Notes: a model not told the origin generated them from the sequence alone. Positions 18,637-47,145 are shown, counted from the first letter of the stretch. The stretch is 64,000 nt of DNA from Candidatus Moraniibacteriota bacterium (GCA_028711705.1 JAQTRS010000002.1:137617-201616), one strand, 5' to 3'. Numbers and translations: made by a program.

Positions 18637-18723
18637 ATGGCTCAGCAAGTTTCTACACAACATAAAATCCCGCCTTTTGAGGGGCGAGACTCTATGTATC
18701 CGATACGCGCTGTCGTATGGAAA

Positions 18724-21700
18724 TTACTTCTTGCCTTCTCGGAAACCGGTTCCGGCTGGAATCAATCGTCCGATGATAACGTTTTCCTTGAGGCCTCGCA
18801 AGCGATCCTCCTTGCCGGCGACGGCGGCATTGATCAGAACGCGGGCCGTCTCCATGAACGATGCGGCAGAAAGGAAGCTCTCGGTCGAAAGCGCCACTTT
18901 AGTGATACCCAGGATAAGTGCCATTCCGGTCGCCTCCTGCCCCTTGGTTGCCCTCGCCTCTTCGTTCGACTCCTCGAACTGGACGCGCTCCACGACATCG
19001 CCCGGCAGAAGCATCGTGCTTCCCGGTTCCGATACCTGGATACGAGAGAGCATCTGACGGATAATCACTTCGATGTGCTTGTCATTGATACCTTCACCCT
19101 GAGATGCATAGATTTCCTGGATCTCGCGGATGACGTAACGGTGCAGTTCTTCGCGGCCCATAACGGTGTAGAGCTTGCGCAAGTCGATGTGTCCTTCGGA
19201 AAGAACCGATCCTTGACCAATCAGATCACCCTCTTGAACCTTGAGCGTCGTACCGGCAGCGATCTGATATTCCTTCACGCTTTCGTCCTGTGCCTGCACT
19301 TTAACGACCACCACTTTGCTGCTTTCCTTGACGATGGATACCACACGTCCGGCCTCTTCGGCGATCAGCGCCTCGCCTTTGGGCTGACGAGCCTCGAAAA
19401 TTTCCTCGACACGAGGGAGGCCCTGCGTAATGTCCGATCCGGCGACACCGCCGATGTGGAAGGTACGCATCGTGAGCTGCGTTCCCGGTTCTCCGATAGC
19501 TTGAGCCGCCACGACGCCGACAGCCTGGCCGAGCTGCACCAAAGCGCTTCGTCCGAGATCCAAACCGTAACATTTCTGACAAACGCCCCTCATGCTCTTG
19601 CAGGTCACGACGCTTCGAATCTTCACCTTGTCGATGTTCAAATCCTCGATCGCCTGTCCCTGCGTCTTGGAGATAAGATCCCCGGCTTTGGCCACGACAT
19701 GTCCGGAAGCATCCGACACGTCCACCAATGCGACACGGCCCTCGACGCGTGTTGCGAAGCTCTGCCCGATGATATCGGAATCGGCCCTGTACAGGTAGGC
19801 GCCTTCGGTATCGCCACAATCGGTTTCGCGGATGATGATATCTTGTGCTACATCGACGAGACGGCGGGTCAAATAACCGGCGGTCGCAGTACGAAGAGCG
19901 GTATCCGCCATACCCTTACGGGCACCGTGCGTCGAGATGAAATACTCCAACACATTGAATCCTTCCTTGAACGAGCTCTTCACAGGAAGTTCGATCGTCT
20001 CACCTGTCGGACCGGCCATCAAGCCTTTCATACCGGTCATCTGCACGACGACCGATTCACTACCGCGGGCCTTGGAATAGACCATCGAGTACACCGGTCC
20101 TTCCTTATCCAAAGAGGCGCGCACGGCATCCGTAATCTTGTTCTTGGCTTCGTTCCAGATTTCGATCACGCGGTTGCGGCGTTCTTCATTGGTCAAAAGA
20201 CCCATGTTGTACTGACCTTTCACCTCGGCCACCTTGGTTTCAGCAACCGCCATGATGTCCTTCTTTTCTGTCGGCACCTTCAGGTCGTCCATACCCCAAC
20301 TGATTCCGGACTTACTGACGAAACGGAATGCCAAATCCTTCACGCGATCCGCGAAAAGAGCGGCCTCGTCCTGTCCAACCGACATCATGATGGTGATCAT
20401 CAGGTTCTTGAGGTCCTTCTTGATCAATTCCTCATTCACAAAACGCAATGTCTCCGGAAGAATATCATTGACCAACACGCGTCCGGCCGAAGTTTCGATG
20501 ATTTCACCGTTCCACAACAACTTGATGGCGGCGTTAATGGCGATCACTTCCGACTGATAGGCCAAGATAACCTCTTCCATCGAACTGAAGATCTTGCCTT
20601 CGCCCTTCATACCCCTCTTGATGTGCGAGAGGTAATACATACCGAGCACCATATCCAAAGACGGGGTCACGATCGGATCTCCCGAAGCCGGCTTGAGGAG
20701 ATTCTTCGCGGAAAGCATGATTTCGGCGCTTTCCTTGCGAGCATGATCAGTCAGTGGCACATGCACCGCCATCTGATCACCATCAAAGTCCGCATTGAAA
20801 GCGGTACACACCATAGGGTGCAGACGGATAGCCTTACCTTCGATCAATACCGGCTGGAAGGCCTGAATGGACAGACGATGAAGGGTCGGTGCGCGGTTGA
20901 GCAAAACATAGTGATGCTCGATGATCTGGTCGAGGATTTCATAGGCCTCTTCCGCTTCAGCATCCACCATCCTGCCGGCGGTACGCACATTATGAGCATA
21001 CTCGCGATCGATGAGCTTGTTGATGATGAACGGCTTGAAAAGTTCCAGCGCCATTTTCTTGGGCAGACCGCACTGATGCAGTTTGAGCTGCGGACCCACG
21101 ACGATAACGGATCGTCCCGAGTAATCCACACGCTTTCCCAAAAGGTTCTGACGGAAACGGCCCTGCTTTCCCTTGAGCGCGTCGGCCAGCGACCGAAGCG
21201 CACGGCGCTGTCCGGTCGAAGCGGCTGTCGATGCCTGTCCGCGACGGGCGCTGTTATCGAAGAGCGCATCCACCGCTTCTTGAAGCATGCGCTTTTCATT
21301 GCGCGTAATCACCTCCGGAGCACCGATACTGTTGAGTTTCTTCAGGCGGTTGTTTCGGTTGATGATGCGGCGGTACAGATCGTTCAGATCGGAGGTTGCA
21401 AACCTACCGCCGTCCAGCGCCACCATCGGACGAAGATCCGGCGGGATAACGGGGATGATGGTCGGAAGCATCCACTCCAATTTCAGATTCGCCTTCTTGA
21501 ATCCCTGGAACAATTTCAAACGCTGCAAGGCCTTCTTTCGATCAGGAGATTCATCCTTGTCGAGATTCTCTTTCAAGATTTCGGTGGTTGCATCGATATC
21601 GATCTTGCTCAGTACCTTGCGCACGGCCTCGGCACCGATACCGGCGTGAAACACCTGTCCGAAACGGGTCGAAAGATTGAAATACTCCACTTCGGAGAGG

Positions 21701-22320
21701 ATCTGGAACGGCTGGAGGTTCTTGATATCCTCCTTGGCGGAACGGTACTGATCCTTCAGGTCATCCATGCCGGCATCGACCGCCTTCTCGTCGTCGCCGT
21801 GATTGTTCTTGACTTCCTTCTGTTTGGACCTGTACTCGCGCTCGAGCTGTTCGACGGCGCGCTCCTTTTCTACCTCATCCACCTCGGTGATGATGTAGGC
21901 GGAAAAATAGATGACCTTCTCCAATTCCTGCGGGGAGATTCCCAAAGCGAGACCGATCTTGGATGGCACGCCACGGAGGAACCAGATATGCGAAACCGGC
22001 GCGGCGAGCTTGATGTGCCCCATGCGCTCACGGCGAACGATGGAACGGGTCACCTCGACTCCGCACTTATCGCACACGATGCCTTTGTAACGGATGCGCT
22101 TGTATTTTCCGCAGTAACACTCCCAGTCCTTGGCCGGACCGAAGATTTTTTCGCAAAACAGACCGTCGAGCTCATAGCGCTGAGTTCGATAGTTGATGGT
22201 CTCGGGCTTGGTTATTTCACCATGCGACCACTCCATCATCTGGTCAGGACTCGCGAGGCTGAGGCGGACGCTCTCGAAGTCGCTTACTTTCGTAATGTTG
22301 TTTTCCATGATCTTGTTCAT
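18724..22320 (-). CDS. rpoC: DNA-directed RNA polymerase subunit beta-prime
   Basis: ORF track; 1198 aa; zinc-binding CxxC, NADFDGD catalytic motif. Confidence 0.97.
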
Positions 22321-22373
22321 AAGTTTAGGTTATTGAAGCGCCGGGCGTAGCAAGTACGCCCCGCGTTATATAA

Positions 22374-36264: not shown

Positions 36265-37737
<1,473 letters not shown>

Positions 37738-37779
37738 CTATTGTAACACGGGCTCGCTGAAAGGCGTTTTTTATACACC

Positions 37780-37808
37780 TTGACAAATCGATCCCAAAAG
37801 TGTATGTT
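37780..37808 (+). promoter_or_regulatory. sigma70 promoter TTGACAAAT-N-TATGTT for the 37891 cassette
   Basis: -35 TTGACA 37780-37785, 17-bp spacer, -10 TATGTT 37803-37808; paralogous to the promoters at 41700 and 42337. Confidence 0.5.
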
Positions 37809-37890
37809 ATGCAGTCAATGGATTCAGCATGAAATTATTGACTGTACCGTTATTTAACAACCTTTTATCATCAGACCGCAAGGAGGTCGC

Positions 37891-38277
37891 ATGAAACAAT
37901 ATCTCCGCATCATAACCGCCGGCACACTCGGGCTCACAACAGCATTTGCCGTCATGGTATTGCTATACGCCATGGCAACCGGCATGCATCGTGGGAAATC
38001 CATCCTCGATGCCAGTGAAGAATCCGTTCTTATTTTCATCGGCATCGCGATCATCACGTCTAGCGGTATCGCTGCAATGGTAATACTGGCGTGCCTCAAA
38101 AAAGCGTGGGAAATCGGATCGGCCTTCACCATGATTCTCGCAGTCGCCGCAGGATTGGCGGAAATTTTGAGCGATCAGTTTTTGCTGATACTCATCATGA
38201 TCGTCGTCGTAGCATCGATCGGCCTTTGGTATTCCTACCAAAAAGCCCTTGCCATCCCTGCGAACAAAAACAAGTAA
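37891..38277 (+). CDS. small polytopic membrane protein (128 aa), cassette C
   Basis: ORF track; AAGGAGGT RBS 4 nt upstream; 4 predicted TM helices; opposite strand to the flanking atp genes. Confidence 0.55.
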   Translation: MKQYLRIITAGTLGLTTAFAVMVLLYAMATGMHRGKSILDASEESVLIFIGIAIITSSGIAAMVILACLKKAWEIGSAFTMILAVAAGLAEILSDQFLLILIMIVVVASIGLWYSYQKALAIPANKNK

Positions 38278-38288
38278 TTCATCCAGCA

Positions 38289-38317
38289 TTTGGGATTCGA
38301 TACCATCCAATCCCAAA
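38289..38317 (+). repeat. conserved stem-loop TTTGGGATT-cgataccatcc-AATCCCAAA directly after the 38277 stop (copy 1 of 3)
   Basis: 9-bp perfect stem; same loop as copy 2 (38714..38742); stem differs by the compensatory pair T..A versus C..G. Confidence 0.45.
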
Positions 38318-38400
38318 GCGCGGGGCAAAATCTCCGCCCTTCGGTCATATCGTAACAAGATACCGAGGGGCGACTTTTCCAATCAACCGAGGAATCTATC

Positions 38401-38700
38401 ATGTCAACCTACACCACCATGCGTGTTTTCAAAATACTGACTTCGAAGGGGAAGACTTATTTCGCTGAGCAAGAAGGGCTTGAAATCCTGCGCAGCCACA
38501 ATAACTTGGAAAGCGTCGCAAGATCCGTCAAGGAAAAACTTGCTACCGCCACAACCTCTATCGATTTTTGCTTCACGCCGTTTCATGATGCGACCGTCGG
38601 GTGCGACGGCAAAACGCTCTGTCACTACAAACCGCTATCAGAACGTGAGAAAACGATCTTCCTAGATGCTCTCTGCTCCGCCGGTAAACCGGCCGAATAA
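38401..38700 (+). CDS. small Cys-containing soluble protein (99 aa), hypothetical
   Basis: ORF track; GAGGAA RBS; followed by the same conserved 3' stem-loop as the membrane-protein cassettes. Confidence 0.45.
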   Translation: MSTYTTMRVFKILTSKGKTYFAEQEGLEILRSHNNLESVARSVKEKLATATTSIDFCFTPFHDATVGCDGKTLCHYKPLSEREKTIFLDALCSAGKPAE

Positions 38701-38713
38701 TTTTCACCCAACA

Positions 38714-38742
38714 TTCGGGATTCGATACCATCCAATCCCGAA
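38714..38742 (+). repeat. conserved stem-loop TTCGGGATT-cgataccatcc-AATCCCGAA directly after the 38700 stop (copy 2)
   Basis: 9-bp perfect stem plus outer CACCC/GGGTG pairing (38704..38752). Confidence 0.45.
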
Positions 38743-38854
38743 GCGTGGGGTGAAGCGCTATCGCCTTTCAATTACTTTTACTTTCACAAAAGCTACTGAG
38801 GGCGATTTTTTAATGTGAAAATTTTCAATTCAAATCGATACTGTTCTTAGTCTC

Positions 38855-38924
38855 ATGACCGTACTATTTTATACGCAACCTTCTTAAGTACTCCAACGGT
38901 TACTTAACAAAATAGTACGGTCAT
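38855..38924. repeat. long hairpin: 16-bp perfect inverted repeat ATGACCGTACTATTTT with a 38-nt loop containing CCTTCTTAAGTACTCCAACGGT
   Basis: Seen in sequence downstream of the atpG stop; loop core matches (22/24) the reverse complement of the loop of the 47075..47145 palindrome. Confidence 0.45.
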
Positions 38925-38963
38925 ACTCAGTCTTTTGTGGTAATTGCTTTTAGTCATCCTTTA

Positions 38964-39917
38964 TCATCCGTTTACCGCTGCCATACCAGCGGAAAGCTCG
39001 GCGATTTCCTGCGTCACTTTCGCCTGGCGGAGCTGATTGTACGAAAGCGTGAAATCGGCGACCATATCCTTGGCGGCATCGGTCGCATTACGCATCGCCA
39101 TCATTCTGGCGGCCTCCTGCGACGCATTGGATTCCAAAATGGCGTGATGGATCTGCATCTCGATCAACCGCGGGATAAGCATTTCCAATACCATCTCCGG
39201 TGTCGGCTCTATCTGATACTGCTTGCGAAGTTCCAAAACATCGGGTTGCCTCGGATGAGACTGCTTCGCAGGCGCATACACCGGCTCATGAGTATCCTCC
39301 ATCTCCCCGATTTCGTCCTGCAAAGCGCCTTGCGACAATGGGAGTAAGCGCCGCACATTCGTCTTCTGGACCATCGGCGAGACATAGTCCGTATAGATGA
39401 GCATCACCTTGTCATAGCACCCGCTCTCATATTCCTCCCGCACCAACCGCGCGATAGGACGGACGCCTGCCGCACGCACCTGTGTGAGCGCATCGGGAAA
39501 GGAGGCCTTGATGACACCCTGGCACTGGCGCAGCAGCTGATCGCCTTTCTTACCGATGGAGACGAAATCGATGTACTCCGGCTTCACGCCCCGCTCTCCG
39601 AATCTCGCCACTTCCTGCTTCACCTGACGGATGATCTGCGTATTGAATGAGCCGCACAAGCCGCGATTGGCAGTAATGACCACGAGCAAGACTCTTTTCA
39701 CCTCGCGTGCCCGGAACAATGTATAATCCTCATCCTTCATCGCTTGGGAAACCTTGGCCAGCACCTGAAGCGCACTTTGCGCATACGGACGGATGGCCAC
39801 CACCTGCGCCACGGCCTTGCGCATTTTGACGGCGGAAATCATCTCCATAGCCCGGGTGATCTTGCTCGTGCTCTTGATTCCTTTTATTCGTTGTTTGAGT
39901 TCTTTGGTTGACGGCAT
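38964..39917 (-). CDS. atpG: ATP synthase F1 gamma subunit
   Basis: ORF track; 317 aa; conserved N- and C-terminal helices (ITRAMEMISAVKMRKA; QEIAELSAG). Confidence 0.9.
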   Translation of the reverse strand: MPSTKELKQRIKGIKSTSKITRAMEMISAVKMRKAVAQVVAIRPYAQSALQVLAKVSQAMKDEDYTLFRAREVKRVLLVVITANRGLCGSFNTQIIRQVKQEVARFGERGVKPEYIDFVSIGKKGDQLLRQCQGVIKASFPDALTQVRAAGVRPIARLVREEYESGCYDKVMLIYTDYVSPMVQKTNVRRLLPLSQGALQDEIGEMEDTHEPVYAPAKQSHPRQPDVLELRKQYQIEPTPEMVLEMLIPRLIEMQIHHAILESNASQEAARMMAMRNATDAAKDMVADFTLSYNQLRQAKVTQEIAELSAGMAAVNG

Positions 39918-40025
39918 AACTATGAGAATTATGAATCAAGAATTTGGAATTAAGCGCTTTGTTCACAAAATCTTTCTTTATAGCAAGCTTGATTCTTTAT
40001 TCTTAATTCCTGATTCCATATATTT

Positions 40026-41522
40026 TTAAAACATTTTCTTAAACTCGGTGATGCTCTGCTGCAAAGTTTCTTCCACCTCCGGGGTCAAAACCTTTTCCTT
40101 GCGGATGGCTTCGATAACCGCCGAGCCTTCCGTTTCCAGATAGACATGGAATTTCTTTTCCCAATCGCCCAAAGCTTCCACTGCCACATCTTCAAGATAC
40201 CCTCGAGTCAAGGCATAGAGTAATGCCACTTCGTGTTCGACAGACAACGGCGCGTACTGCGACTGCTTCAAGACTTCGACGCCTCGCTTACCACGCTCGA
40301 TCTGTTGCTTGGTCTTTTCATCCAAATCCGAGCCGAACTGCGCGAACGCTTCGAGCTCACGGAATTGCGCGAGATCGAGACGGAGCTTGCCAGCCACTTG
40401 TTTCATCGCTTTGATCTGAGCATCACCACCCACGCGCGATACGGAAAGCCCGACATTGAGCGCTGGCCTGATACCCTTGTAAAACAGGTCCGATTCGAGG
40501 TAAATCTGACCGTCGGTGATGGAGATGACATTGGTCGGGATATACGCCGACACGTCACCTGCCTGAGTTTCGATAATCGGGAGCGCGGTCAAAGAACCGC
40601 CGCCGTTTTCGGCATTGAGTTTGGCGCTGCGCTCGAGCAATCGGGAATGCAGATAAAACACATCTCCAGGATACGCTTCGCGTCCCGGTGGGCGTCGCAG
40701 GATGAGCGAGATCTGACGATAGGCCGCGGCATGTTTGGACAGATCATCATAGACCACCAACACGTCCTTACCCCTGTCCATAAAGTACTCGCCCATCGCG
40801 CATCCGGCATACGGAGCGATGAATGACAGTGCAGCCGGATCGGATGCGCCTGCCACGACGATCGTTGTATATTCCATCGCACACTTTTCCTCGAGCTCGG
40901 CAACGATACGCGCGATCTTGGATTCCTTCTGCCCGATAGCGACATAGATGCAGATGACACCCTGCCCCGCCTGATTGAGGATGGTATCGATAGCGATAGC
41001 GGTCTTACCGGTCTGACGATCCCCGATAATAAGCTCGCGCTGTCCGCGTCCGATCGGTATGAGCGCGTCAATCGCCTTGATACCCGTCTGAAGCGGCTGA
41101 TGCACGGACTGCCTGGTGATTACGCCCGGAGCGATTTTTTCCACCGGATACAATGCACTCGTTGCGATGGCGCCCTTGCCATCGATCGGCGAGCCCAGTG
41201 CATTCGTTACGCGTCCAATAACCGCATCTCCCACCGGCACCGACAATATTTTTCCCGTCGCCTTGACGACATCGCCTTCCTTGATCGATCCCATCTGACT
41301 CAAAAGCATAATACCTGCCTGATCCTCCTCAAGGTTGAGCGCCACACCCAAGGATCCATCGGGAAATTCTACCATTTCAGAAGCTTTGACATTCGCAAGT
41401 CCAGAGGCGCGCACGACGCCATCCCCCACTTCCAAAACCGTCCCGATTTCCTCGCGCGTGGTTTCGGAGTGGAATCCTTCAATTTGTTTTTTCAATTCTT
41501 CGATAAGGTGATTATTGGACAT
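40026..41522 (-). CDS. atpA: ATP synthase F1 alpha subunit
   Basis: ORF track; Walker A GDRQTGKT; 498 aa. Confidence 0.96.
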
Positions 41523-41699
41523 AGATGTAAGTATTAGGAATTAAGAGTTTAGAATCAAGCTTTCTTCTTTGTTGTGCTGGACTCGTTTCAGCATCCCCTC
41601 CTTTGTAAAACCGATTATATCTACTCGGGATCCTGAAACAAGTTCAGGATGACAGAAACACAATTTTTGCTTTATCTAGGATATTTTTCTCTTCAATTC

Positions 41700-41728
41700 T
41701 TGACAAATGACTGAGTATGGAGTACAAC
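41700..41728 (+). promoter_or_regulatory. sigma70 promoter TTGACAAAT-N-TACAAC for cassette A
   Basis: -35 41700-41705, 17-bp spacer, -10 41723-41728; sequence TTGACAAATgactgagtatggagTACAAC is paralogous to 42337..42365. Confidence 0.45.
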
Positions 41729-41768
41729 ACAAATTCGTACAATTTAGATTCCTTTCAAAATCTGAACC

Positions 41769-42032
41769 ATGCGAAGGCTTAACAATTTTTATTTTCAACC
41801 GATCGAGGAGATCGAAACGAACCACAAACTACAATTTAAAATGAGTCTGATAATTGCTGTGATTAGTCTAGTAATTACCATTGGATGGGTAATCCTTCAA
41901 CCTTTATTGGTATTATTCGGAGTAATAAGCCTCGAGCTCACTAATTCAATTGGGCTAATCCCGTCTGGTATCGGAATAATCACATTTGCAATTAGTATGA
42001 TGATTGCAGCAACTAGTGCCATGCCAAAATAA
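41769..42032 (+). CDS. small membrane protein (87 aa; possibly 63 aa from the ATG at 41841), cassette A
   Basis: ORF track; two TM helices. The leader gatcgaggagatcgaaACG is homologous to cassette B's gatcgaggagatcgaaATG (start codon replaced by ACG), so the true start is uncertain. Confidence 0.45.
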   Translation: MRRLNNFYFQPIEEIETNHKLQFKMSLIIAVISLVITIGWVILQPLLVLFGVISLELTNSIGLIPSGIGIITFAISMMIAATSAMPK

Positions 42033-42064
42033 AAAATGTAGTCTCGGTAATTTTCACCCCACAA

Positions 42065-42091
42065 TCAGGATTTGAAAATTCCAATCCCGAA
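42065..42091 (+). repeat. degenerate third copy of the 3' stem-loop (TCAGGATT..AATCCCGAA) after the 42032 stop
   Basis: Flanking TTTTCACCCcAcAaTC aligns with copy 2; stem has one A-C mismatch. Confidence 0.3.
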
Positions 42092-42114
42092 GCATGAGGT
42101 CAAAAAACATAACG

Positions 42115-42160
42115 CCTTCAGCCCCTATTGCAACAGCAATATACTGAAGGTTGTTTTTTT
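42115..42160 (+). terminator. rho-independent terminator CCTTCAG-N22-CTGAAGG + TTGTTTTTTT
   Basis: 7-bp stem plus T-run; a paralogous terminator is at 42784..42830. Confidence 0.6.
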
Positions 42161-42201
42161 ATTTCAAGGAACTTCTCATTGCTCGGCACACCTTTTTCTT
42201 T

Positions 42202-42268
42202 GTCATCCCGAGCGCAGTCGAGGAATCTTTTCCTATCGAGGAGATCCTTCGACTATGCTCAGGATGAC
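42202..42268 (+). repeat. structured element copy 1: outer stem GTCATCCCGAGC/GCTCAGGATGAC enclosing a conserved GAGGAATCTTTTC core
   Basis: Seen in sequence; copy 2 (42851..42917) has a completely different 16-bp perfect outer stem but the same core. Confidence 0.4.
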
Positions 42269-42336
42269 ACAACTATATGTCTTCTTGATGTATACGCTAT
42301 TTATTGCTTTATTAAGCGTATTTTTCTCAGATATAC

Positions 42337-42365
42337 TTGACAAATTGCCAAGTATGGAGTATACT
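42337..42365 (+). promoter_or_regulatory. sigma70 promoter TTGACAAAT-N-TATACT for cassette B
   Basis: -35 42337-42342, 17-bp spacer, -10 TATACT 42360-42365. Confidence 0.5.
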
Positions 42366-42445
42366 GCCCTTTCAGTGAGTTTTGTATTATCGAATGCTCA
42401 TCTGATAATTTAACAATTTTTCAATCACAGATCGAGGAGATCGAA

Positions 42446-42754
42446 ATGAACGCCACGAAAATCACAGAAGCATTATCAATAGCGACACTCGCCGTAACAC
42501 TAGGATCACTACCTCTGATGGATAACACTTTCGGACCAACCATGTCCGAAAGGATGCTACAGCTACTGCTGATTCTAGCATTAACCGCAATCGCAGTGCT
42601 AGCACTGGCATACAATGATGAATACGAATCCAAAGCATTTGCCATTGTGATGGTAATCCTAACAATAGGATTCTCGATAGTTCATTTAGTGTCTTGGTGG
42701 ATTCCATGTATAGTTACGCTCGCGGCAGTAAACCTGCTTTCGCGACATTTCTAA
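42446..42754 (+). CDS. small membrane protein (102 aa), cassette B
   Basis: ORF track; GAGGAG RBS 6 nt upstream; three TM helices. Confidence 0.55.
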   Translation: MNATKITEALSIATLAVTLGSLPLMDNTFGPTMSERMLQLLLILALTAIAVLALAYNDEYESKAFAIVMVILTIGFSIVHLVSWWIPCIVTLAAVNLLSRHF

Positions 42755-42783
42755 CACGAAACATCAGACGATAAAATGCCATG

Positions 42784-42830
42784 CCTTCAGTTATTACTGT
42801 AAACATACAACATACTGAAGGCTATTTTTT
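42784..42830 (+). terminator. rho-independent terminator CCTTCAG-N24-CTGAAGG + CTATTTTTT
   Basis: Paralog of 42115..42160. Confidence 0.6.
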
Positions 42831-42850
42831 ATTGCCAAAGAACTTTCTCC

Positions 42851-42917
42851 TTATCGTTCCGAGTTTATTGAGGAATCTTTTCTTGTAACGGGCTCCTCAG
42901 CAAACTCGGAACGATAA
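42851..42917 (+). repeat. structured element copy 2: outer stem TTATCGTTCCGAGTTT/AAACTCGGAACGATAA enclosing GAGGAATCTTTTC
   Basis: 16-bp perfect stem; core shared with 42202..42268; ends 17 nt before the atpH stop (convergent). Confidence 0.4.
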
Positions 42918-42933
42918 TGTCCACAACCTCATT

Positions 42934-43335
42934 TTATTTTAACAGTATTTTTCTTACATCTTTTATCTTTCCTGCCACCGATGCATCCACCAGATGATTG
43001 TCGGTTTTCATCACCGCGCCTCCGATAAGTGTACTATCAGACCGGGTATCGAGCGCCACTGACTCGCTTTCAAACATTTCCTTCGCGAATACTTCCAACT
43101 CTTTCATCAATTCCGCATTTGCAGGAAAAGCGGTCGTGACCGATACGCGCTTCATGCCTGTTTTCGCATCCTGCAATCGCTCCAACTTCTTGACGATACC
43201 GGATAGCTTCTTGAAGTCGCCTTTGCGTCTCAGGAATGCGAAGAAGTCCGCTGCAATCCTTGTCTGATCAACCGCAGACTTCTCTGCAGAGAGTGAAAGA
43301 AGGGCTTTTGCATATTGTGAGGCGGTCGTACGCAT
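42934..43335 (-). CDS. atpH: ATP synthase F1 delta subunit (OSCP)
   Basis: ORF track; 133 aa (short); position between atpF and atpA. Confidence 0.75.
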   Translation of the reverse strand: MRTTASQYAKALLSLSAEKSAVDQTRIAADFFAFLRRKGDFKKLSGIVKKLERLQDAKTGMKRVSVTTAFPANAELMKELEVFAKEMFESESVALDTRSDSTLIGGAVMKTDNHLVDASVAGKIKDVRKILLK

Positions 43336-43339
43336 GGGA

Positions 43340-43834
43340 TTATCCTAAAGATTTCAAATGTTTTTGGATGAGTTCGCTGTCCTTATGGGCATCGATCTTT
43401 TCCTGCAAAACTTTTTCCGTCGTCAAAACGACTAATTCCGCCAGCTGCGCCTTCGCATCACTCAATAATTTCGCTTTCTCTGATTCCATCTTCAGTTCTG
43501 ATTGCTTCATAAGACGATCCACGTCTTCCTTGGCTTGCTCGAGCATCTTCTCATAATTCTGTTTGCCCAATCTTTCCGCCTTTTCGAGTATTTTCTGCGC
43601 TTCTTTCTTGGCCTGTTCCAGCATTTCCCGTTCCTTCTGCTCCATCTCGCCGAGTTTCTTGTGCGCGGCATCGGCATCCGAGAGCCCCTTATCGATACGC
43701 TCCGTGCGCTCCGCAAGGAATGCTAACATCGGACGATACGCGAAACGGCGCAATATCCAAAACAGTATCGCGAAGTTTACGATCTGGGCGATGAAAAGCT
43801 TCCAATCGATGCCGAGTTTTGCAAGAATTTCCAT
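43340..43834 (-). CDS. atpF: ATP synthase Fo subunit b
   Basis: ORF track; N-terminal TM plus long charged coiled-coil. Confidence 0.85.
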   Translation of the reverse strand: MEILAKLGIDWKLFIAQIVNFAILFWILRRFAYRPMLAFLAERTERIDKGLSDADAAHKKLGEMEQKEREMLEQAKKEAQKILEKAERLGKQNYEKMLEQAKEDVDRLMKQSELKMESEKAKLLSDAKAQLAELVVLTTEKVLQEKIDAHKDSELIQKHLKSLG

Positions 43835-43845
43835 AGAAGCTTATA

Positions 43846-44118
<273 letters not shown>

Positions 44119-44216
44119 TTATCATGTTAATTATGTATCATCCCGAGCTCGGCGAGCGATTTCCTTTTCGGGAGATTCTTCGACAAGCTCGAAATGATAC
44201 TGCCTAACTCCCCGGA

Positions 44217-44960
44217 TCAATGCTCCGCTTCGAGTGTCGCCATCTTGATAAATACCAGCGAGAGAAGTGCGAACACCGCTGCCTGCACAAACCCCACGAA
44301 CACCTCGATAATCAGGAAGGGGATGGGCAAGGCATAGGGCACCAGATGCAGCATCACGATCAGAAGCACCTCGCCGGCGAACACATTTCCGAAAAGACGG
44401 AATGAAAACGAGATCATACGCGTCACTTCGCTGAGCAGCTCCAAAAGTCCCACGAAACTTCCCACAAGATACGGCTTATGGAAGGGGCTGACAAAAAACT
44501 TCCTCCCATATTTCGCCACGCCGATCGTCGCGATGCCAAGGAACTGCACCGAAAACACCACGATAAACGACAGCGCGATCGTCGTATTAAGATCAGCGGA
44601 ACCGCTCCGGATAAACGGGATGATGGAATGCTCTCCATGCGCAAGGCCGACCGTTCCCATACCCGGCAAAAGACCAATCCAATTGGAGAAGAGCACAAAA
44701 ATAAAGATAGTAGCGATAAGCGGGAAAACCGCGTGCGCCAACTTCTTATCCTGCATGATATCCAGAGTAAAACCCCATATCGCTTCAATCAGCGCCTCTG
44801 CTCCATTTTGGAGCCCGCGTGGCACCGGCTGCAGCCTTCCTTGGAGCGCAAACGCCGCCATCATCACCAATACGCTCACGATGAGGGTCATAATGAGCGT
44901 ATTGGTCACCGGGAAACCCCCGATGTGAAACAAACTTTCGGCTGCGATCGATACTTCCAT
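44217..44960 (-). CDS. atpB: ATP synthase Fo subunit a
   Basis: ORF track; 247 aa polytopic; conserved Arg in RLFGN. Confidence 0.9.
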   Translation of the reverse strand: MEVSIAAESLFHIGGFPVTNTLIMTLIVSVLVMMAAFALQGRLQPVPRGLQNGAEALIEAIWGFTLDIMQDKKLAHAVFPLIATIFIFVLFSNWIGLLPGMGTVGLAHGEHSIIPFIRSGSADLNTTIALSFIVVFSVQFLGIATIGVAKYGRKFFVSPFHKPYLVGSFVGLLELLSEVTRMISFSFRLFGNVFAGEVLLIVMLHLVPYALPIPFLIIEVFVGFVQAAVFALLSLVFIKMATLEAEH

Positions 44961-45187: not shown

Positions 45188-45259
45188 GGTCCCATCGTCT
45201 AACGGTTAGGACAGCAGGTTTTCATCCTGTAAACCGGGGTTCGACTCCCCGTGGGATCA
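45188..45259 (+). tRNA. tRNA-Glu (anticodon UUC)
   Basis: Hand-folded cloverleaf: acceptor GGTCCCA/TGGGATC, D-stem GTCT/GGAC, anticodon stem GCAGG/CCTGT with loop TTTTCAT, T-stem CGGGG/CCCCG, T-loop TTCGACT. CCA not encoded. Confidence 0.85.
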
Positions 45260-45265
45260 CATAGT

Positions 45266-47074: not shown

Positions 47075-47145
47075 AAATGGTGTCAGATATATTTTCAGGA
47101 CCGTTGGAGTACTCGAGAAGGTCCTGAAAATATATCTGACACCAT
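47075..47145. repeat. perfect 27-bp inverted repeat AATGGTGTCAGATATATTTTCAGGACC with a 17-bp loop gttggaGTACTCgagaa
   Basis: Seen in sequence, in the divergent region between the amidase gene (-) and the lamin-tail gene (+); loop core is shared with the hairpin at 38855..38924. Confidence 0.5.

Follow-up and report, generated by a model that had tools for sequence, protein, structure and literature searches.

A covarying hairpin within small inverted gene cassettes in the ATP synthase operon of a Candidatus Moranbacteria genome, a possible antisense RNA core

The F-type ATP synthase (atp) operon of a Candidatus Moranbacteria metagenome-assembled genome (locus tags PHT88_*) carries small genes that read against it, and three of the four such genes seen here are followed by a long structured hairpin, which is the subject of this report. 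The locus, which SRR22315508 also contains, was studied within a stretch of 64,000 nucleotides (nt), hereafter the window, and all coordinates are counted from its first letter. The operon has the gene order atpB, atpE, atpF, atpH, atpA, atpG, atpD, atpC, with Pfam labels for the genes taken from orthologous genes. Two of its gaps are enlarged to 1.2-1.4 kb, and each holds two units on the plus strand, cassettes 1 and 2 (W1 and W2) between atpG and atpD, and cassettes 3 and 4 (W3 and W4) between atpH and atpA (Table 1). The self-contained cassette plan comprises a strong sigma-70 promoter, a structured leader (~80 nt), a small and mostly hydrophobic open reading frame (ORF), the hairpin and a terminator, all reading against atp. 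Cassettes 1, 3 and 4 are alike in their promoter, TTGACAAAT followed by TATGGAGTATACT or a variant of it, in a leader of ~80 nt that contains a TTTAACAAT box and a hairpin showing covariation, and in a Shine-Dalgarno sequence; the long hairpin is found in cassettes 1, 2 and 3, and the terminator in all four. These signals (promoter, leader, hairpin, terminator) occur nowhere else within the 64 kb. The 20 neighbouring ORFs, all of them housekeeping genes (MreB, MurA, glycosyltransferases, BipA, GAPDH, Mur ligase and others), include no integrase or transposase, and the window is ordinary chromosome.

A first-pass annotation of the window had described a conserved 9-bp stem-loop directly after three small-ORF stop codons. 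Its first two copies stand exactly as described, with the core TTTGGGATT-cgataccatcc-AATCCCAAA (in full TTTGGGATTcgataccatccAATCCCAAA) at 38289-38317 and the core TTCGGGATT-cgataccatcc-AATCCCGAA (in full TTCGGGATTcgataccatccAATCCCGAA) at 38714-38742. A degenerate 29-mer pattern matches twice, against 0.00 matches expected from 100 shuffles, and the T-A to C-G change between the two copies at stem position 3 is genuine. The third copy (~42065-42093) is degenerate, as had been claimed. Its core is ATCAGGATT-tgaaaattcc-AATCCCGAA. On the plus strand 7 of the 9 stem positions pair and an A·C mismatch falls in the 5' arm, while the shared 3' arm and flank read CCAATCCCGAAGC. The distances given from stop codon to copy (12, 14 and 33 nt for copies 1, 2 and 3) are right as well, and a second in-frame TAA in copy 3, at 42048-42050, lines up with the stop codons of the other two.

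The 9-bp stem is thus present, but it is only the inner part of a larger structure, an interrupted hairpin of ~55 nt and ~22 pairs in which an outer stem (TTCACC../..GGTGAA) and a middle one surround the 9-bp inner stem, with a 3-bp apical stem after it. When the three window regions are aligned, the conserved unit opens at the stop codon itself, as TAA-TTTTCACC. As a GC-containing hairpin after a stop codon, the element resembles an intrinsic terminator. The earlier remark that the copies lack a U-run and are not classical terminators holds for the hairpin itself, which has no U-run behind it on either strand in any copy; what the remark missed is that in every window copy a classical terminator, a hairpin with a T-run, lies 2-8 nt downstream. 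An intrinsic terminator acting in the atp sense was also rejected, the U-run being missing in every copy. At the gathering threshold, the only Rfam match in the window is a tRNA-Glu, which leaves the hairpin without a family, and a permissive Rfam scan of 37700-43000 gave chance-level matches elsewhere only. A covariance model (CM) search of the 64-kb window with filters off returned the three atp-gap copies only; a weak match at 47078-47144 was rejected as an unrelated perfect palindrome.

Taken by themselves, the three window copies that had been offered as evidence are one paralogous ORF/hairpin/terminator cassette and not three independent observations; independence comes from nine further copies in relatives. 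These relatives were reached via AtpG, from contigs carrying its closest homologs, and via the sole homolog of the 128-amino-acid (aa) protein of cassette 1 (L050). Further hairpins were sought with a sequence profile and the covariance model in ~107 kb of the relatives' atp loci. The nine additional hairpins lie on seven related contigs, on which AtpG, where present, is 70-76% identical. They occupy the atpG-atpD gap (L037/L038, L039, L040a, L041a, L048a and L050), the atpH-atpA gap (L040b and L046a) and the atpF-atpH gap (L046b). Every one of them is on the strand opposite to atp and stands directly past the stop codon of a small ORF with a like promoter, leader and terminator, except in L048a, where the stop codon is lost and the ORF runs into the hairpin. 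Counting all cassettes with or without a hairpin, 16 out of 16 are antisense to atp. The hairpin starts 11-14 nt past the cassette stop codon in most copies, whereas its distance to the upstream atp gene ranges from 12 nt to >400 nt, and the W1 hairpin adjoins another cassette instead.

Remoter relatives (L042, 66%; L043, 61%; and L047) possess compact, cassette-free atp operons, which places the gain of the cassettes inside a single subclade. A scan of 185,579 species genomes (source genome not included) with the pattern GGGATTN{8,10}CCAATCCCRAAGC gave 35 matches, about the chance number, with unrelated loops and flanks. In JGI metagenomes a first pattern had 0 matches, and a second found only a known contig (L045 = L038) and one chance match in an alanyl-tRNA synthetase gene; viral contigs, phage records and plasmid records yielded no match. 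With pattern scans empty beyond chance, the element is therefore narrowly distributed.

The ORFs that precede the hairpins are real genes under purifying selection, because the ratio of nonsynonymous to synonymous substitution rates (dN/dS) lies well below 1, at 0.24-0.43, in three ortholog pairs: W1/L050 (50% aa identity, dN/dS 0.24), W3/L046a (78%, 0.29) and L041a/L048a (72%, 0.43). Hydrophobic membrane proteins of 38-134 aa are encoded by 13 of the 16 cassettes. The proteins of W1 and L046b are distant homologs (E 1e-6) though they sit in different gaps, atpG-atpD and atpF-atpH, respectively. The 38-aa product of L041a/L048a, with a transmembrane helix and a basic tail, resembles classical type I toxins. 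Comparison with Pfam and PADLOC gave no family match for the cassette proteins, and in a set of 5.8 billion clusters those of W1 and W2 stand alone as ORFans; when 1.84 billion representatives were scanned in full with HMMER, one true homolog came up, the L050 ortholog of W1.

Covariation was assessed in an alignment of 11 copies with a structure of 22 pairs. In this alignment 80% of cells are paired, versus 18-47% when the partners are slid against each other, nine of the 22 pairs have changed on both sides, and the observed covariation was reached by none of 500 shuffles. Compensatory changes include C-G to T-A at stem position 3 (W1), T-A to A-T at position 1 (L040b), G-C to A-T at position 4 (L041a, L048a, L046a and L046b) and T-A to C-G at position 9 (L041a and L048a), while the apical stem has been replaced wholesale in L046a, L046b and L050. 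The first-pass annotation had argued for a selected structure rather than chance, and had named a lack of further copies, or of covariation once more homologs were aligned, as grounds for abandoning it; both the additional copies and the covariation were found.

The non-Watson-Crick cells differ between the two strands. On the ORF-sense strand, 12 copies contain 27 A·C cells versus 4 G·U, distributed over at least ten pairs (binomial p = 3e-5, a value that treats related copies as separate). On the atp-sense strand every A·C turns into a G·U, and 89.0% of cells are paired there versus 80.2% on the ORF strand. In the folding test the atp-sense strand gives the stabler structure for each of the 11 copies (mean -25.6 versus -17.9 kcal/mol, Wilcoxon p = 0.001), and for this strand RNAalifold gives a consensus of -24.65 kcal/mol with 21 pairs, 9 compensatory, versus -10.04 kcal/mol and 14 pairs for the ORF strand. 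GC skew is steadily negative on the plus strand across the window, and the favoured hairpin strand is the G-rich one, so that a strand-biased mutation pattern might in principle imitate the imbalance. The adjacent terminator hairpin, which served as an internal control in 15 modules, has no such asymmetry (-20.5 versus -20.1 kcal/mol, p = 0.59; G·U 16 versus 15), and therefore strand-biased mutation does not explain the strand bias of the hairpin. The A·C/G·U imbalance, together with the better folding of the opposite strand, shows that the hairpin is selected as a single strand, the one that reads with atp and lies antisense to the small ORFs.

A candidate start for a transcript in this direction lies within the terminators. 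Their T-run is on the cassette strand only, and past it stands a box, ATTTCAAAGAAC, which is conserved though not needed by a terminator and which reads GTTCTTTGAAATAAAAAAA on the atp-sense strand. On that strand a -35-like element (TTGAAA, TTGGCA or TTGCAA) is placed just outside the A-run, 16-19 nt upstream of TATGTT, TATATT, TATAAT or NATTAT in the distal terminator stem/loop. By promoter-scanner criteria, a sigma-70-like site occurs at the same position in 10 of 15 modules; 500 shuffles gave 2.4 such modules on average and never more than 7. A promoter within the hairpin, with TTGACC/TTCACC as its -35, was rejected on inspection, no acceptable -10 being present at the right spacing. A separate observation concerns the other end of the cassette, where the -35 element TTGACAA is nearly palindromic. 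It reads TTGTCAA in the atp sense, with TATCCT, TAGCCT or TAGCTT 17 nt on, inside a conserved TTGCTTTATTAAGGCTATT (41678-41706, minus strand, and equivalents by each cassette promoter). On this sequence, the downstream atp gene may be served by a divergent promoter within the cassette.

The leading hypothesis, to which we give a probability of roughly 0.4, takes the hairpin to be the structured part of an antisense RNA that is encoded in cis and controls the small genes, resembling a type I toxin-antitoxin system. A dedicated antisense RNA is favoured because the hairpin stands at a fixed distance from the stop codon of its cassette but from no atp gene, and because in the window the W1 copy follows another cassette rather than an atp gene. 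The proposed RNA would begin at the terminator-embedded promoter and consist of a ~25-35-nt single-stranded 5' segment, the long hairpin and then the antisense of the ORF 3' end. Contact would be made loop to loop, between the antisense hairpin and the weaker complementary hairpin in the 3' untranslated region (UTR) of the mRNA; from there base pairing would extend along the 3' region, where complementarity is perfect, into a long duplex, which RNase III or a similar enzyme would cut, or the small-protein mRNA would be destabilised in some other way. Two cassettes of L046 have an identical leader and outer hairpin, and their apical stems differ by compensatory changes, a divergence such as would be expected were partner specificity set at the apex. 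Long antisense stems interrupted by mismatches and bulges are familiar from CopA and Sok-type RNAs.

Convergent 3'-overlapping pairs are known for type I systems, including B. subtilis txpA/RatA and bsrG/SR4 and C. difficile CD2517.1/RCd8, which act in the manner proposed here (PMC5961336; PMC12390103). The cassettes are like these pairs in joining a small membrane protein gene, with its own promoter and a long leader, to RNA structure favoured on the opposite strand over the 3' UTR, with a promoter-like element facing back from beyond the 3' end of the gene and the possibility of a long, perfect duplex suited to RNase III (PMC5961336; PMC12390103). They are unlike them in that there is no relation of sequence or family, that the candidate antisense promoter overlaps the sense terminator, that the cassettes are placed inside an essential operon and that the host belongs to the Patescibacteria. 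Type I systems have been reported only from the Proteobacteria, the Firmicutes and the Tenericutes, besides one recent cyanobacterial case (PMC12390103); we found no literature linking them to the Candidate Phyla Radiation/Patescibacteria. The par system of Enterococcus (fst RNA I / RNA II) has convergent transcripts of the kind proposed here, meeting at a shared terminator hairpin that is equally stable on both strands, but par pairs through 5' direct repeats near the start codon. A par-like direct repeat shared by leader and trailer was rejected here, the longest common substrings being no better than in shuffles. No described family covers the hairpin, and type I systems would serve as the closest working analogy rather than as an established assignment. 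A bolder extension, which we regard as improbable, would make the cassettes a new kind of addiction or dormancy module of Patescibacteria, with an essential operon as antidote, in which a backwards membrane-toxin gene in the atp gaps is silenced by structured antisense RNA from atp-sense transcription; this RNA would come from read-through or from the terminator-embedded promoter, and the toxin mRNA would escape once atp transcription falls.

Several observations weigh against a dedicated antisense RNA of the type I kind. Most of the ORFs, at 63-134 aa, exceed the typical size of type I toxins (<60 aa), which only L041a/L048a fits, and the proteins of W2 (99 aa) and L037b are soluble. Five cassettes (W4, L037b, L041b, L041c and L046c) have a promoter, leader and terminator but no long hairpin, four of the five being in the atpD-atpC gap. 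The antisense promoter scores only 8/12, below threshold, in W1 and W2, which have the best hairpins of the window; its spacers vary from 16 to 20 nt across modules, and no terminator is seen for the putative antisense RNA, as no U-run lies past the hairpin on the atp-sense strand. The hairpin copies are related, so that counts made on them are not independent events. Single-stranded DNA would fit a G·T-based strand preference as well, since in DNA, too, G·T is the mildest mismatch, and transcription of the atp-sense strand could just as well come from read-through of the atp operon.

The last point opens an alternative that we hold to be unlikely, if still a serious one, in which the hairpin belongs to the operon's own read-through transcript as an RNase III-type processing site or exonuclease barrier. 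Polymerase coming from atpG, atpH or atpF would cross the inverted cassette, and the hairpin would separate or stabilise segments of the atp mRNA and limit the formation of a long duplex with the cassette mRNA. The strand evidence speaks for such a transcript as much as for an antisense RNA; every cassette is antisense to atp and has its T-runs on the cassette strand only, through which atp-sense transcription could pass, and in the window and the relatives' ~107 kb the element occurs in atp gaps only. Moreover, an interrupted helix of ~22 bp is of the size cut by RNase III. On the other hand, the hairpin has a fixed place with respect to the stop codon of its cassette but to none of the atp genes, it is lacking from the atpD-atpC-gap cassettes and from W4, and the possible divergent promoter TTGTCA-N17-TATCCT for the downstream atp gene would make read-through unnecessary.

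A role of the hairpin in the ORF-sense mRNA, where it would be a 3'-UTR element that stabilises, binds a protein or helps the terminator, is improbable. The excess of A·C over G·U (27 to 4) is on precisely this strand, whose consensus has 14 pairs and about -10 kcal/mol, and W3 (-10.0 kcal/mol) and L046a (-9.3 kcal/mol) barely fold on it. The hairpin is nevertheless situated between stop codon and terminator, and hence certainly transcribed with the small ORF; the window copies still fold on the ORF strand (z-scores -5.5, -5.9 and -3.6), and the loop CGATACCATCC is the same in four copies (W1, W2, L041a and L048a) although their stems differ. The first-pass annotation had implied the ORF-sense strand and put forward a 3' stabiliser, which is at odds with the A·C count and with the better folding of all 11 tested copies on the opposite strand; among the functions that it listed, an antisense target comes nearest to the reading that the evidence favours.

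A shade less credible again is a hairpin of single-stranded DNA serving cassette recombination or mobility, which would be recognised on the lagging-strand template and be analogous to attC bottom strands or the subterminal hairpins of IS200/IS605-type elements. The likeness to attC is that of an imperfect palindrome straight after a cassette ORF, better folded on the G-rich strand complementary to that ORF, with two sites 425 bp apart; the bottom-strand folding preference is present, but it is common to antisense RNAs and hence not diagnostic of attC. The homologous W1 and L046b in different gaps, together with the cassette-free operons of L042, L043 and L047, show gain and movement. An attC identity was rejected, however, since the boxes R'' (RYYYAAC) and R' (GTTRRRY) occur together in none of 12 copies in either orientation, no integrase or transposase is encoded among the 20 neighbouring ORFs, and the cassettes have promoters and terminators of their own. 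Single boxes of this type are seen at the hairpin base of W2 (ACCCAAC) and in the apical part of L046a. Furthermore, the inner stem is conserved and the outer variable here, the reverse of attC. The element is not dispersed and is absent from viral contigs, phages and plasmids, and five cassettes lack it altogether. The hairpin resembles repetitive extragenic palindromic (REP) sequences and bacterial interspersed mosaic elements (BIME) in being an imperfect palindrome in intercistronic gaps of an operon, with a conceivable role as a barrier in mRNA; membership in the REP or IS200-IS605 type was rejected for an element that is confined to atp gaps (64 kb and the relatives' loci) and tied to one cassette type. 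A recoding signal for the small ORF, by stop-codon read-through or in the manner of a selenocysteine insertion sequence (SECIS), is scarcely credible, for although the spacing of 11-14 nt past the stop is like that of bacterial SECIS elements and the L048a ORF reads into the hairpin, the stop is TAA and not TGA in 8 of 12 copies (W1, W2, W3, L039a, L040b, L046a, L046b and L050), no conserved frame continues downstream, and the structure is weaker on the mRNA strand.

Within the window, the cassettes themselves are in different states. Cassette 2 (38380-38812) is without its own promoter and leader and stands behind the weak T4 terminator of cassette 1; it is missing from the orthologous gap of L050. 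Together with its hairpin and terminator, it looks like a recent insertion or duplication, because the L050 gap holds only cassette 1, and it is probably co-transcribed with cassette 1. Cassette 3 (41700-42050) has several signs of decay, namely a -10 element TACAAC in place of TATACT, an ACG in the place of the ancestral start codon, which is still ATG in cassette 4 and in the ortholog of L046a, and the hairpin most degenerate on the ORF strand. It looks partly decayed, though its protein is 78% identical to the ortholog, with a dN/dS of 0.29.

The gaps that hold the cassettes have received other sequences as well. In various relatives the same gaps contain GIY-YIG ORFs, a methyltransferase-like ORF, YecM and palindromic repeats, and the atp gaps are insertion hot spots. 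In the window, palindromic repeats of the form GTCATCC...GAGCG.AGTCGAGG.../...GGATGAC and a 24-bp inverted repeat lie between the cassettes and the atp genes (41590-41655, 42198-42275 and 42851-42917), and the same repeats flank small GIY-YIG nuclease ORFs between atpG and atpD in L039 and L040. In other relatives, insertions on the same strand as atp include a methyltransferase-like ORF of ~300 aa (atpA-atpG), YecM (atpD-atpC) and a hydrolase with an acyltransferase after atpG (L041 2836-3714 and 6988-7497; L046 3337-4245; L049 1026-2541). In this clade the atp operon tolerates insertions to an unusual degree.

Table 1. Features of the atp locus and its four cassettes in the window.
Feature	Position	Strand	Remarks
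Host atp operon	36265..44960	minus	atpB 44217-44960, atpF 43340-43834, atpH 42934-43335, atpA 40026-41522, atpG 38964-39917, atpD 36265-37731
Cassette 1 promoter (TTGACAAAT...TATGTT)	37780..37808	plus	promoter scan 10/12; TTGACAAAT -35 context common to relatives' cassettes
Cassette 1 leader: hairpin CAGTCAAT/ATTGACTG, TTTAACAA box, Shine-Dalgarno AAGGAGG	37809..37890	plus	plan common to W3, W4 and 10 relatives' cassettes
Cassette 1 ORF, 128-aa multi-pass hydrophobic protein, PHT88_02545	37891..38277	plus	
Hairpin copy 1	38278..38332; inner stem 38289-38297 / 38309-38317	minus (structure)	CM 67.8 bits; -21.4 kcal/mol minus vs -17.2 plus
Terminator 1 (CGCCCTTCGGT...ACCGAGGGGCG + CTTTTCC, weak T-run)	38335..38379	plus	
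Cassette 2 ORF, 99-aa soluble ORFan, PHT88_02550	38401..38700	plus	without own promoter; start 21 nt past terminator 1
Hairpin copy 2, best-formed	38701..38757; inner stem 38714-38722 / 38734-38742	minus (structure)	CM 80.9 bits; -30.4 kcal/mol minus vs -27.2 plus
Terminator 2 (ATCGCCTTTCA...TGAGGGCGAT + TTTTTT)	38760..38812	plus	
Cassette 3 promoter (TTGACAAAT-N-TACAAC, decayed -10)	41700..41728	plus	
Cassette 3 ORF, two-helix membrane protein	41769..42032	plus	ancestral ATG to ACG at 41817-41819; usable ATG at 41841
Hairpin copy 3	42048..42106	minus (structure; degenerate on plus, well formed on minus with G·U pairs)	CM 69.7 bits; -22.7 kcal/mol minus vs -10.0 plus
Terminator 3 (CCTTCAG...CTGAAGG + T-run; hairpin 42114-42163) and conserved box ATTTCAAGGAAC	42114..42172	both	minus: promoter-like TTGAAA-N18-TATATT (42167-42138, 10/12)
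Cassette 4 promoter (TTGACA-N17-TATACT)	42337..42365	plus	promoter scan 11/12
Cassette 4 ORF, 102-aa membrane protein	42446..42754	plus	cassette without long hairpin
Terminator 4 and box TTGCCAAAGAAC	42783..42843	both	minus: promoter-like TTGGCA-N18-TATGTT (42838-42809)

Some further elements of the window stand apart from the cassettes. Between terminator 2 and the atpG stop codon, a second structured element (38855-38924) has a 16-bp perfect stem (ATGACCGTACTATTTT/AAAATAGTACGGTCAT) and a 38-nt loop with CGCAACCTTCTTAAGTACTCCAACGGTTAC; its L050 ortholog (1313-1392) has the same loop and a completely different stem, and the same loop motif recurs, inverted, in a 27-bp perfect palindrome of an unrelated gap (47078-47144). 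It appears to represent a hairpin family of its own, in which the loop is conserved and the stem is free to vary. The sole Rfam/ARAGORN match in the window is a plus-strand tRNA-Glu(UUC) gene at 45188-45260, which lies a short way upstream of the atp operon. Finally, two ORFs of ~1,200 aa on opposite strands, 18637-22350 (plus) and 18724-22320 (minus), overlap almost fully, and only one of them can be real.

If the favoured reading is true, the hairpin would be an uncatalogued structured RNA motif, with covariation and a strand assignment, from an unculturable phylum-level group for which, to our knowledge, almost no regulatory RNAs are known. The count of A·C versus G·U cells, with the adjacent terminator as a control, offers a simple and reusable way of assigning the strand of hairpins. 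Should the antisense RNA prove to be of the type I kind, the class would reach beyond the few phyla in which it is known, and the leader/hairpin/terminator signature would be a handle for finding more; were the cassettes an addiction module, they would give the Candidate Phyla Radiation its first type I-like system, and such systems their first case of a housekeeping mRNA as antitoxin. In one Moranbacteria lineage, the atp operon has been colonised gap by gap by self-insulated inverted cassettes of small genes, whose leaders and trailers are far more conserved than their coding regions, and such colonisation is unusual for streamlined genomes of ~1 Mb.

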